A stretch of DNA of 64,000 nt from Candidatus Woesearchaeota archaeon (lineage in GTDB: Archaea > Nanobdellota > Nanobdellia > Woesearchaeales > BM511), in NCBI GenBank assembly GCA_002867475.1, contig PKTL01000051.1, forward strand, positions 4,640 to 68,639, in the 5' to 3' direction. Of this stretch, positions 3,880-51,953 are shown one piece after another; the stretch's first letter is position 1; every line of letters starts with the position of its first letter. The position numbers and the translations under genes are program-made. The notes under the pieces are model-generated. The model was not told the DNA's origin. It did not search any database and saw only the letters and a list, made by a program, of their open reading frames with translations.

Positions 3880-3971
3880 ATTATGACACCTCTAAAATAT
3901 GTATATGAATTTACTGACATTGGAGCTTTATAAATATTGCTATTTTACAGGATATATTCATCAATAATTGA

Positions 3972-5255
3972 TTAGAAATCTTCTAAACCCTTCTGGGGCC
4001 CAGTCTCTTTTGGTTTTGGAATCTTCTTATGATCATCTGGATTATACAAGATTATCCCATATTCGCCATCGAACCCAGGACTTACAATTATGTTATTTTT
4101 CCTATTTTTCATTATGAATTCTACAAGTTCTTCATCTATAACATCCAATAATTCTAATTTTTTTACATTAAGAAGAATGTTGAATTCATCATTGAAACTT
4201 TCAATCAATTTGTCATATATTTCCCAAACTGATTTTGTATTGACTCCTTTATCAAGATACTTTGCTATTATTTCTGAAAGAGGCATCAAAACATATTGAT
4301 TTACATTTTTTGGATTGTATTCTTCAGACCTATCTGCTAATTCTTCAACCCTTGAAGCAACACCAATAGTTAACTTTTTTCGACAAACCGGACAGATGCT
4401 GTTTCTTTTTGAAGATTCTTTTGGACTGAAAAAGATTCCACATTTCCTATGTCCATCAAAATGATACTTTCCATAATTTGGATCTGCTTCAATCGTTCCA
4501 ACTAAACCTTTTCCTGTATGTATTGCACTTATCAGATTATCATAATTTAATTCTTTAAGTTCAAAAATCGTTGCTTCTCTACCCAGTCGCCATGGCCAAT
4601 AACTATGATTATCAGAAAAAGATACTAAGTTATATTTATCAAGCCCACTAACTCTCCTATTCATAATTATATCACTTGATATTCCTGTCTCAAGACCATA
4701 AATATGTTTTGATTGATCCTTAAAGCATTCTTCAACAGTATTGAATTGATTATATTCTCCAAAAAGCGAGAAGTGTGGCGTCCATATATGTGCAGGTATC
4801 AATTCAATCCTTTCATTTATTTCTTTTAGATCTTTTACGAACTGATCTGAAGGTATCTTGAAAATTGGCCTCCCATCATAATCTATCCTTCCATGAGTAA
4901 GCAAATATTCAGTTATTTTATCAACAGTATCAAAATCAGGTGCTAGAACTACTATGTGTATCCTTCTTCCTTTACCTTCAGAACTGTATATCAAGGATAT
5001 TTCTGTCTGTAAAATGAATTTAAACCCGGTTTTTGTCTTTAATATACCTGAACCATCTTCTTTCAATTTTTCTTTTAACTCTTTTATCCATTTAGGGTGT
5101 GTGAAGTCCCCAGTTCCAAGAAGTGTTAACCCTTTTATCCTAGCCCATTTCTCTAAAGAATCAAGCCCCATCTCTTTACTGCAACCCCTAGAATGTTTTG
5201 AATGTATGTGCAGGTCTGCAATTATCTTATTTGTTTTCGGGTTCATGTTTAACAT
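3972..5255 (-). CDS. endoQ: PHP-domain endonuclease, EndoQ-like (deaminated-base endonuclease family)
   Basis: N-terminal PHP motif ADLHIHSKHSRGC; C-terminal zinc-finger-like C-x14-CPVC; ~425 aa as in archaeal EndoQ (TIGR00375-type). Confidence 0.55.
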   Translation of the reverse strand: MLNMNPKTNKIIADLHIHSKHSRGCSKEMGLDSLEKWARIKGLTLLGTGDFTHPKWIKELKEKLKEDGSGILKTKTGFKFILQTEISLIYSSEGKGRRIHIVVLAPDFDTVDKITEYLLTHGRIDYDGRPIFKIPSDQFVKDLKEINERIELIPAHIWTPHFSLFGEYNQFNTVEECFKDQSKHIYGLETGISSDIIMNRRVSGLDKYNLVSFSDNHSYWPWRLGREATIFELKELNYDNLISAIHTGKGLVGTIEADPNYGKYHFDGHRKCGIFFSPKESSKRNSICPVCRKKLTIGVASRVEELADRSEEYNPKNVNQYVLMPLSEIIAKYLDKGVNTKSVWEIYDKLIESFNDEFNILLNVKKLELLDVIDEELVEFIMKNRKNNIIVSPGFDGEYGIILYNPDDHKKIPKPKETGPQKGLEDF

Positions 5256-5880
5256 GGCCTTTTAGAAGCATTCGACCCATAGATGTAAGATGGATATAGC
5301 TTCTTCCTTTCTCTTCTCTTGAAGTCACAAGCCCAAGCTCCTTTAACCCTTCACTTTTTTGATTTCCATTTATATGATAGCTTATAAGAGGTAAGCTCAT
5401 ATTTGTCTTTTCGCTTAAGGTTTCAAGACCCATTTCTTGACCTTCTGCCTCAAAAAGTAATTCTAAAATCTCTTTTTTCTTATCTGTCAACTCCCTATAA
5501 TAAGTGAACTTGTATATAGGCAAAAGTATTAATTCATCGTTTTGTCTTGTGAATACTTTTATTCCTTTAGTGAATGCTGCAACAATCATGGCTGCACGAA
5601 AATCTCCTTTCACTAATGATACATCGATGAAGAAATTAGATTTAGAATCATCATAATTAGAAGTTACATTGTTTATTACTTCAAAACTTGATTCCCATAT
5701 ATCACCCAGATTTACTCTTTCGCTACCTATATCTTTCACACCTTGCTTATCTTCAGGTATTAAAAATTCATCTTTTATATCCTGTAAATAAATTATTTTT
5801 GAAGGATTCACTACTTCAACCGATTCAATCTTTGAATCTTTTATTGATCCATCTTCCACAGGAACTATTAATATTTCCAT
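5227..5880 (-). CDS. Csa3-like CARF-domain plus winged-HTH transcriptional regulator
   Basis: N-terminal Rossmann-like domain (ILIVPVED..., ...SLVKGDFRAAM, GIKVFTRQNDE) resembling the Csa3 CARF core (VVPS / DLTMGMR / RFTVYVRDE pattern); C-terminal wHTH LTDKKKEILELL...LGLVTSREEKGRSYI. Confidence 0.45.
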   Translation of the reverse strand: MEILIVPVEDGSIKDSKIESVEVVNPSKIIYLQDIKDEFLIPEDKQGVKDIGSERVNLGDIWESSFEVINNVTSNYDDSKSNFFIDVSLVKGDFRAAMIVAAFTKGIKVFTRQNDELILLPIYKFTYYRELTDKKKEILELLFEAEGQEMGLETLSEKTNMSLPLISYHINGNQKSEGLKELGLVTSREEKGRSYIHLTSMGRMLLKGHVKHEPENK

Positions 5881-15970: not shown

Positions 15971-16079
15971 GCCACGATGGGACAATCTGGTACTCCGACA
16001 GACTGGAAATTGTTGTTTTCCAACTCTAGGTATCTGTTTTGCTTTGCATATCCCGGTTCAAATCCGGGTCGTGGCGCCA
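15971..16079 (+). tRNA. tRNA gene with a non-canonical intron (~33 nt extra), encoded CCA; possible anticodon GAA (Phe) from a CAGAC-UGGAAAU-UGUUG arm, but anticodon not firmly assigned
   Basis: 5' GCCACGA pairs with 3' TCGTGGC followed by discriminator G and CCA; perfect T-arm CCCGG-TTCAAAT-CCGGG; D-loop AATCTGGTA; a TATA-like AAATTTTATAAAG lies ~30 nt upstream. Confidence 0.6.
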
Positions 16080-16081
16080 TT

Positions 16082-16135
16082 TCTTATTAAATTAAATGTG
16101 AAATCTAAAAGGATTTGAATCGTCCCGGTTCATGT
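16082..16135 (+). repeat. 54-bp direct repeat, copy 1 (TCTTATTAAATTAAATGTGAAATCTAAAAGGATTTGAATCGTCCCGGTTCATGT)
   Basis: Identical 54-mer recurs at 18759..18812; it contains the T-stem 5' strand plus TTCA, identical to the tRNA at 15971. Confidence 0.8.
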
Positions 16136-16203
16136 ACGAATTATTTTACAATTCGACACACAGAAGAGTAAAACTCTTCTAGTGAATCCGGGTCGTGGCG
16201 TCA
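16124..16203 (+). other. tRNA 3'-end-like module: T-stem CCCGG / TTCA / ~52-nt structured insert / AAT / CCGGG / TCGTGGC-G-TCA (acceptor 3' strand identical to the tRNA at 15971); no matching 5' half nearby
   Basis: The insert carries two strong hairpins (CGAATT..AATTCG; AGAAGAGT..ACTCTTCT), consistent with a T-loop intron or an att-site remnant. Confidence 0.4.
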
Positions 16204-16353
16204 TTTATCTTTTGTTTATATACTCTCATCTAACTCGGACCAGTTTCCGTACTTTTTACAAATTTCTAAAATGTTATTCTAAAAAGAAATAGGTCGCCAT
16301 CATATATAAACGGATGTCGGATGTGAGGCATCACTAAGACACCTTTTAAAAAA

Positions 16354-17460
16354 TTATTTTAGTAATTGGACATTATAACAAGCTCTATCCATAAATTTAT
16401 ATTTTTCACTTGGTTTACCAACAAGTATTTTTTGTCCGACTAATTCTTTAACTTCTTCTCTAGGCATAACTCCAAAATCCACATAAATAGTTCCTTCTCT
16501 AGTATGAGCACCATATACTTTTCTTTCACCGCTAAAGAAATCATGTATTTCATACGCTAATAAAACAATTTCTAAACCTTCATTTAACTTTGAAAGGTCT
16601 TGTTGCCAATTAAAATTTCTAGCCCAATTAATGTATGCTGATTCAATCATAGAAGCAGTAAAAGAAGTATATGAATCAGGTAAACTTCTAACTTTTTCAA
16701 AAATTTTTTTCTGTTCTTCTGAAGAAAATTCAGTTTTTGCGCCAATATCAGCAAATCTAACAATATAATTTCTTTCATTACACTCTTCTATAGTTGGTTC
16801 TTCAGGTTCTGTATTATTAATTGCATAAAACAGTTCCCTCATAGCATTTTTTCCGAGAATGACATTTCTTGCAGCGGCTGCAAAACCTCGTGGACCATCA
16901 TATTCGCCCCAACTTCTAACTAAATCTTCATCCATTGATTCACAAACTTGGTCTAAATCTAAAATCATTGATTTATTTCTACTAGACCAATTATGAAATA
17001 TTTTTTGAACACCTTTTTTAATTAAGGGAATAGAATCATAGTTAGGTTCATTTCTCGATGCTATATTTTTGTAATTTGGATCAAAATATTTTATAAAATC
17101 AATAATCGCCCATTCTTCTTGAGATATTTCTGTAGGTTTTTCTCTTAAATATTCAAAATCTCTATGAGTGCATTCACCCAATAAATTTTCTAAATATCTC
17201 GCAACTAATAATTTTTCCCTCTTTTCAATTGGAGAAGTTGGATTTGATAGAACTTGAAAATTTCCTTTTTTTTGTGATGAACCATTACTCCAATAATCTA
17301 ATTTTTCTAAAATTATTTCTCTATTAAAATATAAACCAATAGGATTTAAATTCTTGTTAGTAACATCCAATACTAAATCTCCTAATTCTTCATTTAGAGA
17401 AATATTAAATTCTTCAGGACTTAAAAATGCCTTTTTTATATGAAAAACCAAATTATCCAT
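16354..17460 (-). CDS. hypothetical protein (368 aa) within the repeat-bounded segment
   Basis: Long non-overlapping ORF with no motif I recognise; a conserved ~25-nt motif lies upstream of its start. Confidence 0.5.
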   Translation of the reverse strand: MDNLVFHIKKAFLSPEEFNISLNEELGDLVLDVTNKNLNPIGLYFNREIILEKLDYWSNGSSQKKGNFQVLSNPTSPIEKREKLLVARYLENLLGECTHRDFEYLREKPTEISQEEWAIIDFIKYFDPNYKNIASRNEPNYDSIPLIKKGVQKIFHNWSSRNKSMILDLDQVCESMDEDLVRSWGEYDGPRGFAAAARNVILGKNAMRELFYAINNTEPEEPTIEECNERNYIVRFADIGAKTEFSSEEQKKIFEKVRSLPDSYTSFTASMIESAYINWARNFNWQQDLSKLNEGLEIVLLAYEIHDFFSGERKVYGAHTREGTIYVDFGVMPREEVKELVGQKILVGKPSEKYKFMDRACYNVQLLK

Positions 17461-17571
17461 ACTGTAAAAATATGTAACTACTATATAAAAGTAACTAATA
17501 CATTTATTTGCCGAGCCGAAATGGCGTTTTAATGAGGCAAGATTTATATGTCCATCAAATCTATTAACTAT

Positions 17572-18579
17572 TTAGTGCCCATATAAATTCATGAGTCTTT
17601 CAAATAAAAATTCCGTTAAAGGTATTGAATCACCCTCTCTTGACACTTCCATTAAGTCTGTAAATTCTATGTGATCTTCTGAAGGAAAATCTACAGGCGG
17701 TAAATTATTTTGAATTAGCATCCAGTTGAAAATTAATCTAGAAACTCTTCCATTTCCATCAATAAATGGATGAACCAATATGAAAGCAGAATGAAAAAGA
17801 ATTGTTTTTTCAAATAAAGATAATTTCGACTTATTATATTTATCAATAACTTCTTGAATGAGTTGCTTTATTTGTCTACCTCCTTTAGGAGGATAAAATT
17901 TTGAACCCATCATTGCTACATTTTGACCTTTTTTCCTATATTTACCTTCATTTTTTGGATTTTCTAAAGTATTTTTAGTTACAAGTTCATGCAACATTAA
18001 AATAAATTTATGATCTAACTCCCCTTTGTATGTCTCAATATATTCATAGGCTTTTACAGTATTTTCAATTTCATAAACTTCTCTCAAAGAATGAGATTTT
18101 GGGACAATACCTTTATTTAATATAAGTTCAGTCTCTTTTAAAGAGATTGTATTACCTTCAGCTTTATTTGTATTGTATGTGAATTTTATTAGAAACGATT
18201 CTCTAACTTTTTTTAAAACATCTTTATCAGTAAGTTTGATTTTTTCTTTATATTTTTCTTTAAGTGCAACAATTTTTTCAATTTGTTTAGAAGATAATAT
18301 ATTCTTTGAAAAATCTATATTCATTTCAAAAGTTTCTCTTTCAAGTTTTTCAAATAGTTTTATCTTAGTTTCAAGAAGCTTTTTCTTCTTAGTGATTAAA
18401 TATTCTAATTTTGTTTTATCAAGGTCAACACCCAAGAATACTCTAATTTTTTTATATTTAGAATCTAAATTGATAGTGTGTGCCAAATAAAAATACTTCT
18501 TTTTTCCTCTTTTTTGTATTTCTGTGTAGACCATATAATAATATATGTCCACAAAATATATAAATTTTTCTATGGACAT
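17572..18579 (-). CDS. Fic/Doc family protein (putative AMPylase / toxin-like)
   Basis: Canonical Fic motif HPFIDGNGRVSRL; N-terminal coiled-coil-rich extension. Confidence 0.8.
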   Translation of the reverse strand: MSIEKFIYFVDIYYYMVYTEIQKRGKKKYFYLAHTINLDSKYKKIRVFLGVDLDKTKLEYLITKKKKLLETKIKLFEKLERETFEMNIDFSKNILSSKQIEKIVALKEKYKEKIKLTDKDVLKKVRESFLIKFTYNTNKAEGNTISLKETELILNKGIVPKSHSLREVYEIENTVKAYEYIETYKGELDHKFILMLHELVTKNTLENPKNEGKYRKKGQNVAMMGSKFYPPKGGRQIKQLIQEVIDKYNKSKLSLFEKTILFHSAFILVHPFIDGNGRVSRLIFNWMLIQNNLPPVDFPSEDHIEFTDLMEVSREGDSIPLTEFLFERLMNLYGH

Positions 18580-18758
18580 ACATTTGCCGAGCCAGAATGG
18601 CGTTTTACTTGGCGAAACTATTTAAATGAAAGCACCCATTTATTAATCATGGCAAAACTTGACGTGCTTTTTCAAGCACTCCGCCAAAAAAAAATCAAGA
18701 ACACAGACAACAAATGCCCAATTTACAGGTAGAATTACGGGTGCGAAATCACGTTCTC

Positions 18759-18812
18759 TCTTATTAAATTAAATGTGAAATCTAAAAGGATTTGAATCGT
18801 CCCGGTTCATGT
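18759..18812 (+). repeat. 54-bp direct repeat, copy 2
   Basis: Identical to 16082..16135. Confidence 0.8.
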
Positions 18813-18875
18813 TATGAAGAGTCAAGCTCTTCAAAGTTCAAAGCAAAGCTTTAAACAATCCGGGCGTTAGCGCCA
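18799..18875 (+). other. second tRNA 3'-end-like module: CCCGG / TTCA / ~48-nt structured insert / AAT / CCGGG / CGTTAGC-G-CCA; acceptor 3' strand differs from copy 1
   Basis: Same architecture as 16124..16203 but with different insert hairpins (GAAGAG..CTCTTC; AAAGCTTT palindrome) and a different acceptor strand; no complementary 5' strand GCTAACG found nearby. Confidence 0.4.
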
Positions 18876-18925
18876 TTCAAATCATTCCATTAATTTTAAA
18901 AACCCTTAAATTCCTTTTAGATAAT

Positions 18926-51712: not shown

Positions 51713-51727
51713 GCCCAGGTCGCATAG
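51713..51727 (+). repeat. 15-nt duplicate of the tRNA 5' end (GCCCAGGTCGCATAG) lying 80 nt upstream of the tRNA
   Basis: Exact match to 51793..51807. Confidence 0.5.
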
Positions 51728-51792
51728 CTCACGACCTTTTAATAAAGCTCGAGCAAAACAAGGCGAGTTAAAACTCACCATTTGGCGTTCAT

Positions 51793-51953
51793 GCCCAGGT
51801 CGCATAGTCTGGTATTGCGCAGACACAAATGAAAACATTTTCTTTGTGGCGTAAGATTGCTAAGTACTACGTCAGTGCTTATGATAACCTGACTATATCC
51901 GCAAGGATCCTGTCCCATCGGGATCATGGGTTCAAATCCCATCCTGGGCGCCA
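51793..51953 (+). tRNA. tRNA gene (161 nt) with long non-canonical intron(s), a class-II-like extra arm, and encoded CCA; anticodon not assigned
   Basis: 5' GCCCAGG pairs with 3' CCTGGGC followed by G and CCA; T-arm ATGGG-TTCAAAT-CCCAT; D-loop AGTCTGGTA; extra hairpin ATCC-GCAA-GGAT. Confidence 0.6.

Follow-up and report, generated by a model that had tools for sequence, protein, structure and literature searches.

We favour, with modest confidence, a reading in which the 2.7-kb segment described here is the inner part of a decayed, multi-layer tandem att array that lies 3' of a Woesearchaeal tRNA-Ser(GGA) gene. A tandem att array is the best fit because the locus holds several same-strand tRNA-Ser 3' ends of two alleles, because its cargo differs between conserved ends and because the copy number of a repeated module varies between assemblies. 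What remains today is a tRNA-anchored accessory slot that contains no integrase, has conserved ends (C1 and C2) and carries exchangeable single-gene cargo. Throughout, "the window" denotes the whole 64-kb stretch of DNA that was analysed, and positions are counted from its first nucleotide.

A tRNA-Ser(GGA) gene and its repeated 3' ends

The tRNA-Ser(GGA) gene that anchors the locus contains an intron of approximately 23-25 nt at the canonical position (23 nt according to ARAGORN with introns allowed). A local Infernal scan matched RF00005 to positions 15971-16076 at 41.9 bits; default ARAGORN and Rfam scans of the whole 64-kb window missed the gene. The features of the locus are listed below in order of position.

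15971-16079, plus strand: tRNA-Ser(GGA), CCA encoded, acceptor stem GCCACGA/TCGTGGC (Infernal RF00005, 41.9 bits; ARAGORN -i)
16061-16082, plus strand: att-like copy 0, made up of the final 19 nt of the tRNA and TTT, repeated at 16185-16206 (21/22)
16082-16135, plus strand: first copy of the 54-mer, a T-rich tRNA trailer plus a conserved block
16107-16135, plus strand: the 29-nt part of the 54-mer with the strongest conservation (97% identity with sister strain L042)
16136-16184, plus strand: hairpin pair A (hp1-ACACAC-hp2-AGTG), positioned where the T-loop would be
16185-16206, plus strand: tRNA-Ser 3'-end fragment 1 (AATCCGGGTCGTGGCGTCA+TTT), of the window's own allele type
16204-16353: C1, conserved non-coding block, 86% identical in L042 and 81% in L043
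16354-17460, minus strand: gene for a 368-aa orphan protein with no family match
17500-17531, plus strand: D5-A, a repeat of 32 nt that matches D5-B at 28/32 positions and lies upstream of the TATA box of the 368-aa gene
17572-18534, minus strand: gene for a 320-aa class II Fic protein that combines HPFIDGNGRVSR with an inhibitory motif, TNKAEG
18542-18580: TATGTCCAC...TGGACATA, a palindrome that surrounds the TATA box of Fic and is conserved along with the gene in L050, L055 and L058
18576-18607, plus strand: D5-B, second copy of the 32-nt repeat
18608-18758: C2, conserved non-coding block, also upstream of cargo in L043, L050 and L058
18759-18812, plus strand: second copy of the 54-mer
18813-18856, plus strand: hairpin pair B
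18857-18876, plus strand: tRNA-Ser 3'-end fragment 2 (AATCCGGGCGTTAGCGCCA+T), identical at 20/20 positions to the 3' end of the L042 tRNA-Ser(GGA)

The original prediction had described an intron-containing tRNA at 15971-16079, an identical pair of 54-mers that each hold the T-stem 5' strand plus TTCA and are each followed by a tRNA 3'-end-like stretch, and, between them, two minus-strand genes (a 368-aa unknown and a Fic-motif protein) with no integrase. All of these elements were recovered, the 3'-end-like stretches being the fragments that begin at 16185 and 18857. The 54-mer TCTTATTAAATTAAATGTGAAATCTAAAAGGATTTGAATCGTCCCGGTTCATGT occurs at 16082-16135 and 18759-18812 with 100% identity (0 expected by chance), and no third copy exists in the 64 kb with up to 3 mismatches allowed. 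It begins 3 nt past the CCA, that is, just outside the tRNA, and each copy ends in TCCCGGTTCA, the T-stem 5' strand plus TTCA. Within the 29-nt block, the palindrome TGAATCG-TCC-CGGTTCA (16116-16132) has a 3' arm that mimics the T-stem 5' strand. Judged by sequence, the two 54-mers each form the proximal half of a junction module of 100-124 bp, which runs from the tRNA trailer through the conserved 29-nt block with its palindrome and a pair of hairpins to the terminal 19-22 nt of tRNA-Ser.

Besides the genuine 3' end of the tRNA, the locus has two clear partial copies, both on the same strand as the tRNA. The pattern AATCCGGG+7nt+G+NCA has three occurrences where 0.1 would be expected, one in the tRNA itself at 16061 and the others at 16185 and 18857. 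The direct repeats include the 3' part of the target tRNA, as a 22-bp repeat (21/22) and as the 19-nt 3' end in three copies. Two weaker copies of the tRNA 3' end probably flank Fic. D5-A in particular is probably a decayed tRNA 3' end plus trailer: the D5 repeat found on the flanks of Fic in both the window and L050 aligns with the tRNA 3' end and trailer of L058. This alignment is short and weak, which counts against the att-array reading. On the evidence of L058, the assignment of D5 to the D-arm of a class-II tRNA was dropped. The idea that a decayed tRNA 3' end lies just before the second 54-mer was likewise abandoned, the homologous C2 ends in L050 and L058 not being tRNA-like. As a separate observation, unitig L003 ends at 16068, an end for which a AAATCCGGG/CGTTAGCGCCA junction would account.

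All three module cores, two in the window and one in L042, are predicted to fold into a four-way junction with a closing stem (GGAUU/AAUCC), the palindrome hairpin and two more hairpins (-26.5, -22.9 and -25.5 kcal/mol; z-scores of approximately -4; MFE identical to the centroid). A MAFFT alignment of the modules is inconsistent with this structure, the hairpins being unrelated; hairpin pair A shares 53% identity with its L042 counterpart, with fold and length unchanged. Such a fold would suit modules that are genes for structured RNAs, or 3' parts of split or T-loop-intron tRNA-Ser, the 54-mer being conserved as part of the RNA. So would the comparison of W1 and L042, in which the hairpins are unrelated yet the fold and length (52 nt) are kept beside a flanking 29 nt that is 97% identical, and a bulge-helix-bulge drawn by hand in the T-loop insert of the L058 tRNA-Ser, the removal of which restores UUCAAAU, although the ViennaRNA MFE folds otherwise. 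Nevertheless, we regard this explanation as improbable. Neither hand drawing nor a script yielded a bulge-helix-bulge for any of the three modules; the criteria of the script were so strict that it also missed two accepted introns, and on this point it is therefore the hand analysis that carries the weight. There is no matching tRNA 5' half, and the L042 T-stem would contain a C-A mismatch. Moreover, Rfam searches up to E = 10 matched the tRNA alone and no known RNA family for the modules, a regex scan located no further module copies in the window or in any fetched locus, and covariation evidence from only three sequences is thin. A T-loop intron or split tRNA was rejected on the basis of the missing 5' half and the lack of a fitting bulge-helix-bulge in the three modules.

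Allele replacement and cargo differences among relatives

Sister strain L042, from the same metagenome sample, encodes an RsmI protein with 89% identity to that of the window. Between the two, the flanks of the tRNA are 83-86% identical and the tRNA only 68%, indicating that the tRNA allele has been replaced at this site. The fragment at 18857-18876 matches at 20/20 positions the 3' end of the intact tRNA-Ser(GGA) of L042, which is an allele other than the window's own, and L042 bears a 21/22 fragment of the window's allele before C1. In L043 (RsmI 69% identity) the tRNA leads straight into C1 without the 124-bp module; C1 is followed by a different gene of 166 aa, then by C2 and then by a decayed tRNA 3' fragment. 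Homology between the window and L043 ends within one codon of the stop of each cargo ORF. Fic adjoins tRNA-Ser(GGA) in three other lineages (L055/L056, L058 and L047, where it is a pseudogene fragment) and is located away from it in L050-L054.

A comparison of relatives had been proposed as a check for an empty site. It produced L043, which lacks the 124-bp module and holds other cargo between C1 and C2, and no empty site: none of the relatives compared has the tRNA joined directly to 18876 onward, and neither an empty site nor a circular junction for the 2.7-kb segment emerged from comparison of the assembled sequences. Among the GTDB representative genomes, none contains the core of the 54-mer or that of C1. 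A metagenome scan with the tRNA 3' end returned almost exclusively chance matches in high-GC bacteria, together with two unrelated DPANN tRNA-Ser genes.

The source contig is metagenome-assembled and module copy number varies among assemblies, which might suggest that the repeat is an assembly artefact. We find this scarcely credible, because the 54-mer pair is present with the same gene order in three independent assemblies (JGI, ENA and NCBI) and Logan unitigs agree. ENA contig L002, from the same strain, is 99.98-100% identical to the window over 9.9 kb, yet contains the 124-bp module twice, and a Logan unitig begins exactly at the predicted branch 31-mer. The 124-bp difference in copy number could itself reflect assembler collapse of a tandem repeat.

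Conservation of C1 exceeds that of the neighbouring RsmI gene, and the fact that C1 and C2 are better conserved than coding DNA suggests that they serve the host or the element in some way besides being scars. Because these ends have co-diverged with the host in three genomes, the islet must be old. The neutral parts of the module differ by approximately 30% between the sister strains, and identity of the 54-mers within one genome therefore points to recent recombination or gene conversion. The original prediction had held that so perfect a repeat was either recent or under selection; a recent event is indeed required, but a recent first arrival is not, since the islet is old and conversion or recombination between its repeats is what their identity demands.

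Much of this could be accommodated without any mobile element, if the site were an old, fast-evolving intergenic slot in which local duplication, and gene conversion between two homologous junction modules, gave rise to the repeats and cargo was swapped by ordinary homologous recombination with DNA from related cells. The co-divergence of C1 and C2 with the host in three genomes, the failure to find an integrase, the coincidence of cargo boundaries with ORF ends and the perfect 54-bp identity beside diverged flanks, which has the look of a short conversion tract, are all consistent with such a slot. We consider it unlikely, however, as it does not explain why the repeated pieces are the 3' ends of two tRNA alleles, all in the orientation of the tRNA, why Fic is found beside tRNA-Ser(GGA) in four lineages, or why the same C2-Fic-D5 module occurs in the unrelated context of L050.

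Cargo genes and the search for a recombinase

Both cargo genes are typical of accessory DNA. The 368-aa protein has no match in Pfam, NCBIfam, PADLOC, PHROG or PDB, and two AlphaFold runs gave pLDDT values of 43 and 35. Its sole relative among 1.8 billion representatives is the remote P0122 (28% identity), the gene for which adjoins that of an HD-domain protein and is itself an insertion between rpL15 and secY. Fic matches PF02661 (6.5e-17) and candidate-defence models of PADLOC, and belongs to a Woesearchaeota-specific clade (59-81% identity, approximately 37 clusters). Its translation, from which HPFIDGNGRVSR and TNKAEG were read, combines HxFx(D/E)GNGRxxR with an N-terminal (S/T)xxxE(G/N) in one chain, as predicted for a class II Fic/Doc protein. 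Compared with class II Fic AMP-transferases, it shares the active-site motif and the inhibitory motif in the same chain, and its gene has a palindromic operator-like sequence of its own; an imperfect relative of this promoter palindrome lies at 17545-17585, at the 3' end of Fic. No upstream ORF shares an operon with Fic, as would be seen in a Fic/Doc toxin-antitoxin pair, and its 368-aa neighbour matches no antitoxin and has a separate promoter.

Neither the segment nor the scanned ORFs of at least 190 aa across the 64 kb showed an integrase or transposase domain in Pfam searches, and in this same set no tyrosine or serine recombinase gene, whether inside the segment or split across its ends, was detected. 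A split ('suicidal') integrase remnant was rejected for the repeat modules themselves, which are overlapped only by ORFs of 49 aa or less; an ORF of 84 aa spans the Fic promoter and C2. An origin from a virus or plasmid was likewise rejected, with no match in IMG/VR (DNA pattern and protein), INPHARED phages or PLSDB plasmids; the same three collections contain no free element, virus or plasmid with the 54-mer, C1, C2, Fic or the orphan gene. The segment has att-like repeats at each end and no recombination genes, the features of a cis-mobilizable element (CIME).

The arrangement of the cargo also invites comparison with integrons. Like integron gene-cassette arrays, the locus has single-gene units in a row, in one orientation, separated by foldable repeated sites. 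A homologous D5-plus-promoter block precedes each cargo gene, D5 direct repeats bracket the Fic cassette in the window (D5-A and D5-B, 28/32, 1076 bp from start to start) and in L050 (27/27), and L043 has one D5 and one gene. D5, the modules or both might then be recombination sites between single-gene cassettes, with the recombinase encoded elsewhere in the genome. Unlike integron arrays, however, the locus has no IntI-like gene and no attI, and each cargo unit has its own archaeal promoter. By inspection, D5 lacks the imperfect palindrome of attC and no attC-like repeat architecture is evident; Fic homologues in L051-L056 lack D5, and only four loci enter the comparison. We therefore judge an integron-like platform to be very improbable.

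Proposed history and likeness to known systems

The original prediction left a choice between a cassette mobilised in trans and a tandem att array. The array fits best; a single cassette with the 54-mers as its att cores was not substantiated, given that the 54-mer lies just outside the tRNA and that the islet is old, with neither an empty site nor a circle junction found. In the history that we envisage for the array, small elements, each with a copy of the tRNA-Ser 3' region in its attachment site, would have recombined repeatedly with the tRNA 3' end, each event leaving behind a partial tRNA 3' copy, and the recombinase genes may have been lost or may never have been present on the elements. 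Recombination between direct repeats, whether homologous or driven by an integrase in trans, could delete, duplicate or circularise the DNA between them. The repeats, the tRNA fragments, the exchange of alleles and the differences in cargo and in copy number are observed; the history of integration and any present-day mobility are what we infer from them. Some observations count against the att-array reading, besides the failure to find an integrase in the ORFs scanned, a free element, an empty site or a circular junction: the identical repeat is located outside the tRNA, C1 and C2 are conserved beyond coding DNA, and the differences between the two intact tRNA alleles extend to their 5' halves, which goes beyond what simple integration at the 3' end can account for. 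A rather unlikely extension is that the junction modules work as recombination sites for promoter-bearing cassettes of Woesearchaeota that lack an integrase, are anchored at tRNA-Ser(GGA) and depend on a putative recombinase acting in trans.

Elements integrated into archaeal tRNA genes use SSV-type 'suicidal' or pNOB8-type 'classical' integrases (reviewed in PMC8371274). The locus resembles them in being adjacent to a tRNA, in its direct repeats of the tRNA 3' part, in its accessory cargo and in tandem stacking at one tRNA with module exchange. It differs from them in having neither an integrase gene nor an int(N) or int(C) remnant, in its Woesearchaeal host, in a longest perfect repeat that lies just outside the tRNA and in the two hairpins that interrupt the tRNA-like junctions at the T-loop position.

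The closest published case is tRNA-Thr(GGU) in a Caldiarchaeum subterraneum population, where two alleles exist and a fragment of one lies beside the other, intact, with inserted DNA between them (Sugahara et al. 2012, PMC3293823). An integrated element with an attP bearing extra intron-like sequence inside the tRNA homology was proposed there (PMC3293823). Our locus shares this pattern of two alleles plus fragment; in C. subterraneum, however, the fragment is a 5' one and the 1.8-kb insert encodes a recombinase (PMC3293823), whereas the window has 3' fragments in several layers and no recombinase. A further parallel is offered by streptococcal CIMEs and accretion at tRNA or fda sites (reviewed in PMC5704250), which are also att-flanked, form tandem arrays and lack recombination genes of their own, and are thought to be moved by the integrase of a neighbouring or incoming element (PMC5704250). 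CIMEs are bacterial and come from conjugative elements (PMC5704250), whereas our islet is archaeal and resembles them in its sequence layout.

Taken together, the islet looks like the scar of repeated insertions of mobile DNA at one hotspot, of a kind already known. Intron-containing tRNAs that anchor such islets escape standard tRNA and RNA scans, a lesson for annotation. Mobile DNA in DPANN archaea is little documented, and the locus provides a concrete example at the level of a population, in which a single tRNA gene serves as a hotspot of recombination and shows swapped alleles, stacked scars of tRNA ends, exchangeable cargo and a 124-bp module of variable copy number. It bears on the proposal that disruption of archaeal tRNA genes, and tRNA fragments, stem from the integration of mobile elements (PMC3293823). 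The compact, structured junction module is a candidate recombination site and, if the modules do work in this way, the locus would be an archaeal equivalent, anchored at a tRNA, of the cassette arrays of integrons or CIMEs.

tRNA-Ser(GGA) and its repeated 3' end

The two copies of the 54-mer are 100% identical, with no further copy in the window and none expected by chance. The original prediction had placed the first of them just after an intron-containing tRNA, which a local Infernal scan (RF00005, 41.9 bits) and ARAGORN with introns allowed both confirmed. The tRNA 3'-end-like module foreseen after each repeat is likewise present, the last 19 nt of the tRNA recurring at 16185 (TCGTGGCGTCA) and, with a differing acceptor strand, at 18857 (CGTTAGCGCCA). 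The features of the locus are as follows.

15971-16079: tRNA-Ser(GGA), 23-nt intron
16082-16135 and 18759-18812: the two 54-mers
16204-16353: C1, left-end conserved non-coding block
minus strand: 368-aa ORF, no family match
17500 and 18576: D5 repeat pair, 32 nt, 28/32 identical
17572-18534, minus strand: Fic CDS, PF02661 at 6.5e-17
18608-18758: C2, right-end conserved non-coding block

Default ARAGORN and whole-window Rfam overlook this tRNA. Over the full 64 kb they return zero RNA genes (gathering threshold and E ≤ 0.01) despite two intron-containing tRNAs, which are detectable only by intron-aware settings or by scanning a short stretch. The second, tRNA-Leu(CAA) (51793-51953, 67-nt intron), is preceded at 80 nt by an exact 15-nt duplicate of its 5' end (GCCCAGGTCGCATAG), and the stretch between holds small hairpins (region 51713-51953). 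This mirrors the tRNA-Ser 3' scar, so that each of the two window tRNA genes has one of its ends partly duplicated.

Positions 16061-16082 (tRNA 3' end plus TTT) match 16185-16206 at 21/22, which defines a 124-bp unit, or junction module, of 54-mer, two hairpins and tRNA 3' end. An ENA contig is 99.98-100% identical to the window over 9.9 kb but carries this unit twice in tandem. The Logan unitig L006 starts with the exact 31-mer expected past a branch after ...GTCATTT, which fits at least two units in a third sample. The difference may be either real copy-number variation or tandem-repeat collapse in the one-copy assemblies. L006 ends at window 16177, and a second unitig, L003, breaks off at 16068, precisely where AATCCGGG of the tRNA T-arm ends; an alternative path may lead on from there, for instance into the CGTTAGC fragment at 18865.

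Swapped tRNA alleles in a co-occurring strain

Orthologues of RsmI, the gene upstream of the tRNA, led to the relatives. One locus, L042, shares its JGI sample with the window's strain (RsmI protein 89% identical) and repeats the window layout up to its contig end: RsmI, tRNA-Ser(GGA), 54-mer-like trailer, two hairpins, tRNA 3' fragment and C1. Its tRNA is the other allele (acceptor GCTAACG/CGTTAGC, 42.1 bits) and its fragment after the hairpins is of the window's allele type (AATCCAGGTCGTGGCGCCA); reciprocally, the window fragment at 18857-18876 is identical to the L042 tRNA 3' end at 20/20 positions.

Identity between the window and L042, by block
RsmI: 83%
tRNA: 68%
54-mer, first 25 nt: 68%
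54-mer, last 29 nt: 97%
Hairpin insert: 53%
3' fragment: 89%
C1: 86%

These block-wise identities indicate that the tRNA was replaced at a conserved position, and the 97% identity of the 29-nt block, with its palindrome TGAAYCG..CGGTTCA, argues that this block is under constraint. The intact tRNA-Ser alleles differ in their 5' halves also, so that simple 3'-end integration is insufficient and whole-gene replacement is needed; the new tRNA gene could have been carried in on an element or acquired through homologous exchange.

Between the window and L042 the module hairpins keep their fold and 52-nt length, not their sequence. All three module cores share the same four-way junction fold (z-scores about -4), with which a fold closed through T-stem-like arms competes. 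Across these three sequences, the predicted fold may be either a selected RNA/DNA structure or an inherited attachment-site arm. We also considered the modules as a bulge-helix-bulge intron, for which no motif was found by hand or by a script strict enough to miss two accepted introns too, and as part of a split tRNA, for which no 5' partner was found and the L042 T-stem would be mismatched. They match nothing in Rfam, and no integrase remnant overlaps them, only ORFs of ≤49 aa.

Cargo genes between conserved ends

The host is a Candidatus Woesearchaeota MAG, and the islet is flanked by archaeal housekeeping genes (uS10, SerRS, PFOR and ADP-forming acetyl-CoA synthetase). Both predicted minus-strand genes are present, the Fic gene being secured by its PF02661 match. 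Its canonical motif HPFIDGNGRVSR is accompanied by an N-terminal inhibitory motif, TNKAEG, which marks the predicted protein as a self-inhibited class II enzyme and not a toxin held in check by an antitoxin of its own gene. PADLOC candidate-defence Fic models match it as well. The Fic promoter sits within a palindrome, TATGTCCAC...TGGACATA, with an imperfect related copy at the Fic 3' end. For the 368-aa protein the family search proposed originally gave no match, and 1.84 billion representatives held a single remote homologue, P0122 (28% identity, E = 1.7e-26); searches for a structure or function found none. P0122 is paired with an HD-domain protein (L049, 2166-4394). The two genes are inserted together into a ribosomal gene cluster, where they separate rpL15 from secY, and this points to a mobile accessory module made up of the pair.

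At the more distant locus L043 (RsmI 69% identical) the tRNA-Ser is of the window's allele type and continues straight into C1; the 124-bp unit is absent. There follow a different 166-aa minus-strand gene, one D5, C2, a degenerate 3' fragment (AATTCGGGCGCAAGGCACA) and two genes orthologous to those of 79 aa and 67 aa in the window, and homology to the window ends within one codon of the stop of the cargo ORF. C1 (150 nt) is conserved above the neighbouring protein gene, at 81% over 178 nt versus 67% for RsmI in L043 and 86% versus 83% in L042. Within C1 two TATA-like boxes point towards one another and AAATAGGTCGCCATCAT is invariant; Rfam gives no match. A C2 hairpin (18640-18700) has the stem CTTGA/TCAAG in the window, ATGCAA/TTGCAT in L043 and GTCC/GGAC in a further locus, L050, with the loop CGT..TTTT and the following A-run kept in all three; it may be a minus-strand terminator or insulator. 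Relatives still further off, L045 and L047, retain the RsmI-tRNA-Ser(GGA) arrangement and lack C1 and C2. In L047 a Fic pseudogene fragment (FVDGNGRVGR) lies immediately after the tRNA, on its strand; this tRNA (3937-4140) has two introns, in the D-arm/anticodon-stem region and at the canonical position.

Both cargo genes have a D5 copy directly before their TATA box, and the two copies frame Fic. Fic orthologues form about 37 clusters (59-81% identity), all named ones from Woesearchaeota. That of L050 (76% identity) stands in the window's order of C2, D5, palindrome, Fic and D5, then another unrelated gene, with 27/27 identical D5 copies and no tRNA nearby. This contig, which holds the closest long-context C2-Fic-D5 copy, also encodes (4733-5521) a protein whose domains include Sigma70_r2 and r4. 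An archaeon would not be expected to have such a protein; the contig could be of bacterial origin, or the gene could have arrived by transfer. tRNA-Ser(GGA) lies 1.1 kb upstream of Fic in L055/L056, and the Fic context holds no tRNA in L051-L054. L058 has a tRNA-Ser 3' part that matches the L047 tRNA at E = 3e-5 and stops 19 nt from the 3' palindrome of Fic. Since this end ('...GGCGGCG TTTTTTCTATGATTGGATT') can be aligned to D5-A in both the window and L050, we read D5, with moderate confidence from alignment, as a putative decayed tRNA 3' end plus trailer. The Fic cassette would then itself have att-like remnants on either side, and L043, where a single D5 is present and Fic is absent, would represent the unoccupied state.

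The L058 tRNA-Ser (reverse strand 90-170) has a 27-nt insert in its T-loop, at position 59/60. By hand it can be drawn as a bulge-helix-bulge (central helix UUCA/UGAG, bulges AAC and AGU), and UUCAAAU is restored when each bulge is cut behind its second base; the ViennaRNA MFE is a different fold with shifted pairing. Non-canonical T-loop introns probably exist in this Woesearchaeal clade.

A probable tRNA-linked integration hotspot

The locus fits a tRNA-Ser(GGA) integration hotspot with a stack of att-like tRNA-end remnants, which would run: tRNA, module 1, window-allele fragment, C1, orphan gene, D5, Fic, D5, C2, module 2, other-allele fragment. As predicted for the segment, no integrase or transposase domain was found in the scanned window ORFs of ≥190 aa, several of which have no match at all. 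Searches of viral contigs, phages, plasmids and GTDB representative genomes turned up nothing related, and a metagenome scan with the tRNA 3' end as pattern gave essentially chance matches.

Because C1 and C2 diverged in step with the host, the islet is old, and perfect 54-mer identity therefore reflects a recent conversion or recombination event and not the first arrival. Of the original choice between a cassette mobilised in trans and a tandem att array, the array, in decayed form, fits best. The nearest parallel in the literature is the tRNA-Thr locus of Caldiarchaeum, where a single population contains two alleles as well as a fragment, explained by the authors through an integrating element whose attP held extra sequence inside the tRNA homology (PMC3293823). 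Other archaeal elements undergo tandem integration and then homologous module exchange (PMC8371274), and bacterial CIMEs are att-flanked islets without an integrase (PMC5704250).

Taken together, the feature is real and well defined. In general terms its kind is known: a tandem att array in decay, or an islet lacking an integrase, beside a tRNA; any present-day mobility of the 2.7-kb segment would be putative. Its unusual traits are junction modules interrupted at the T-loop position with conserved structure, reciprocal tRNA allele fragments in co-occurring strains, and ORF-precise exchange of cargo between conserved non-coding ends.
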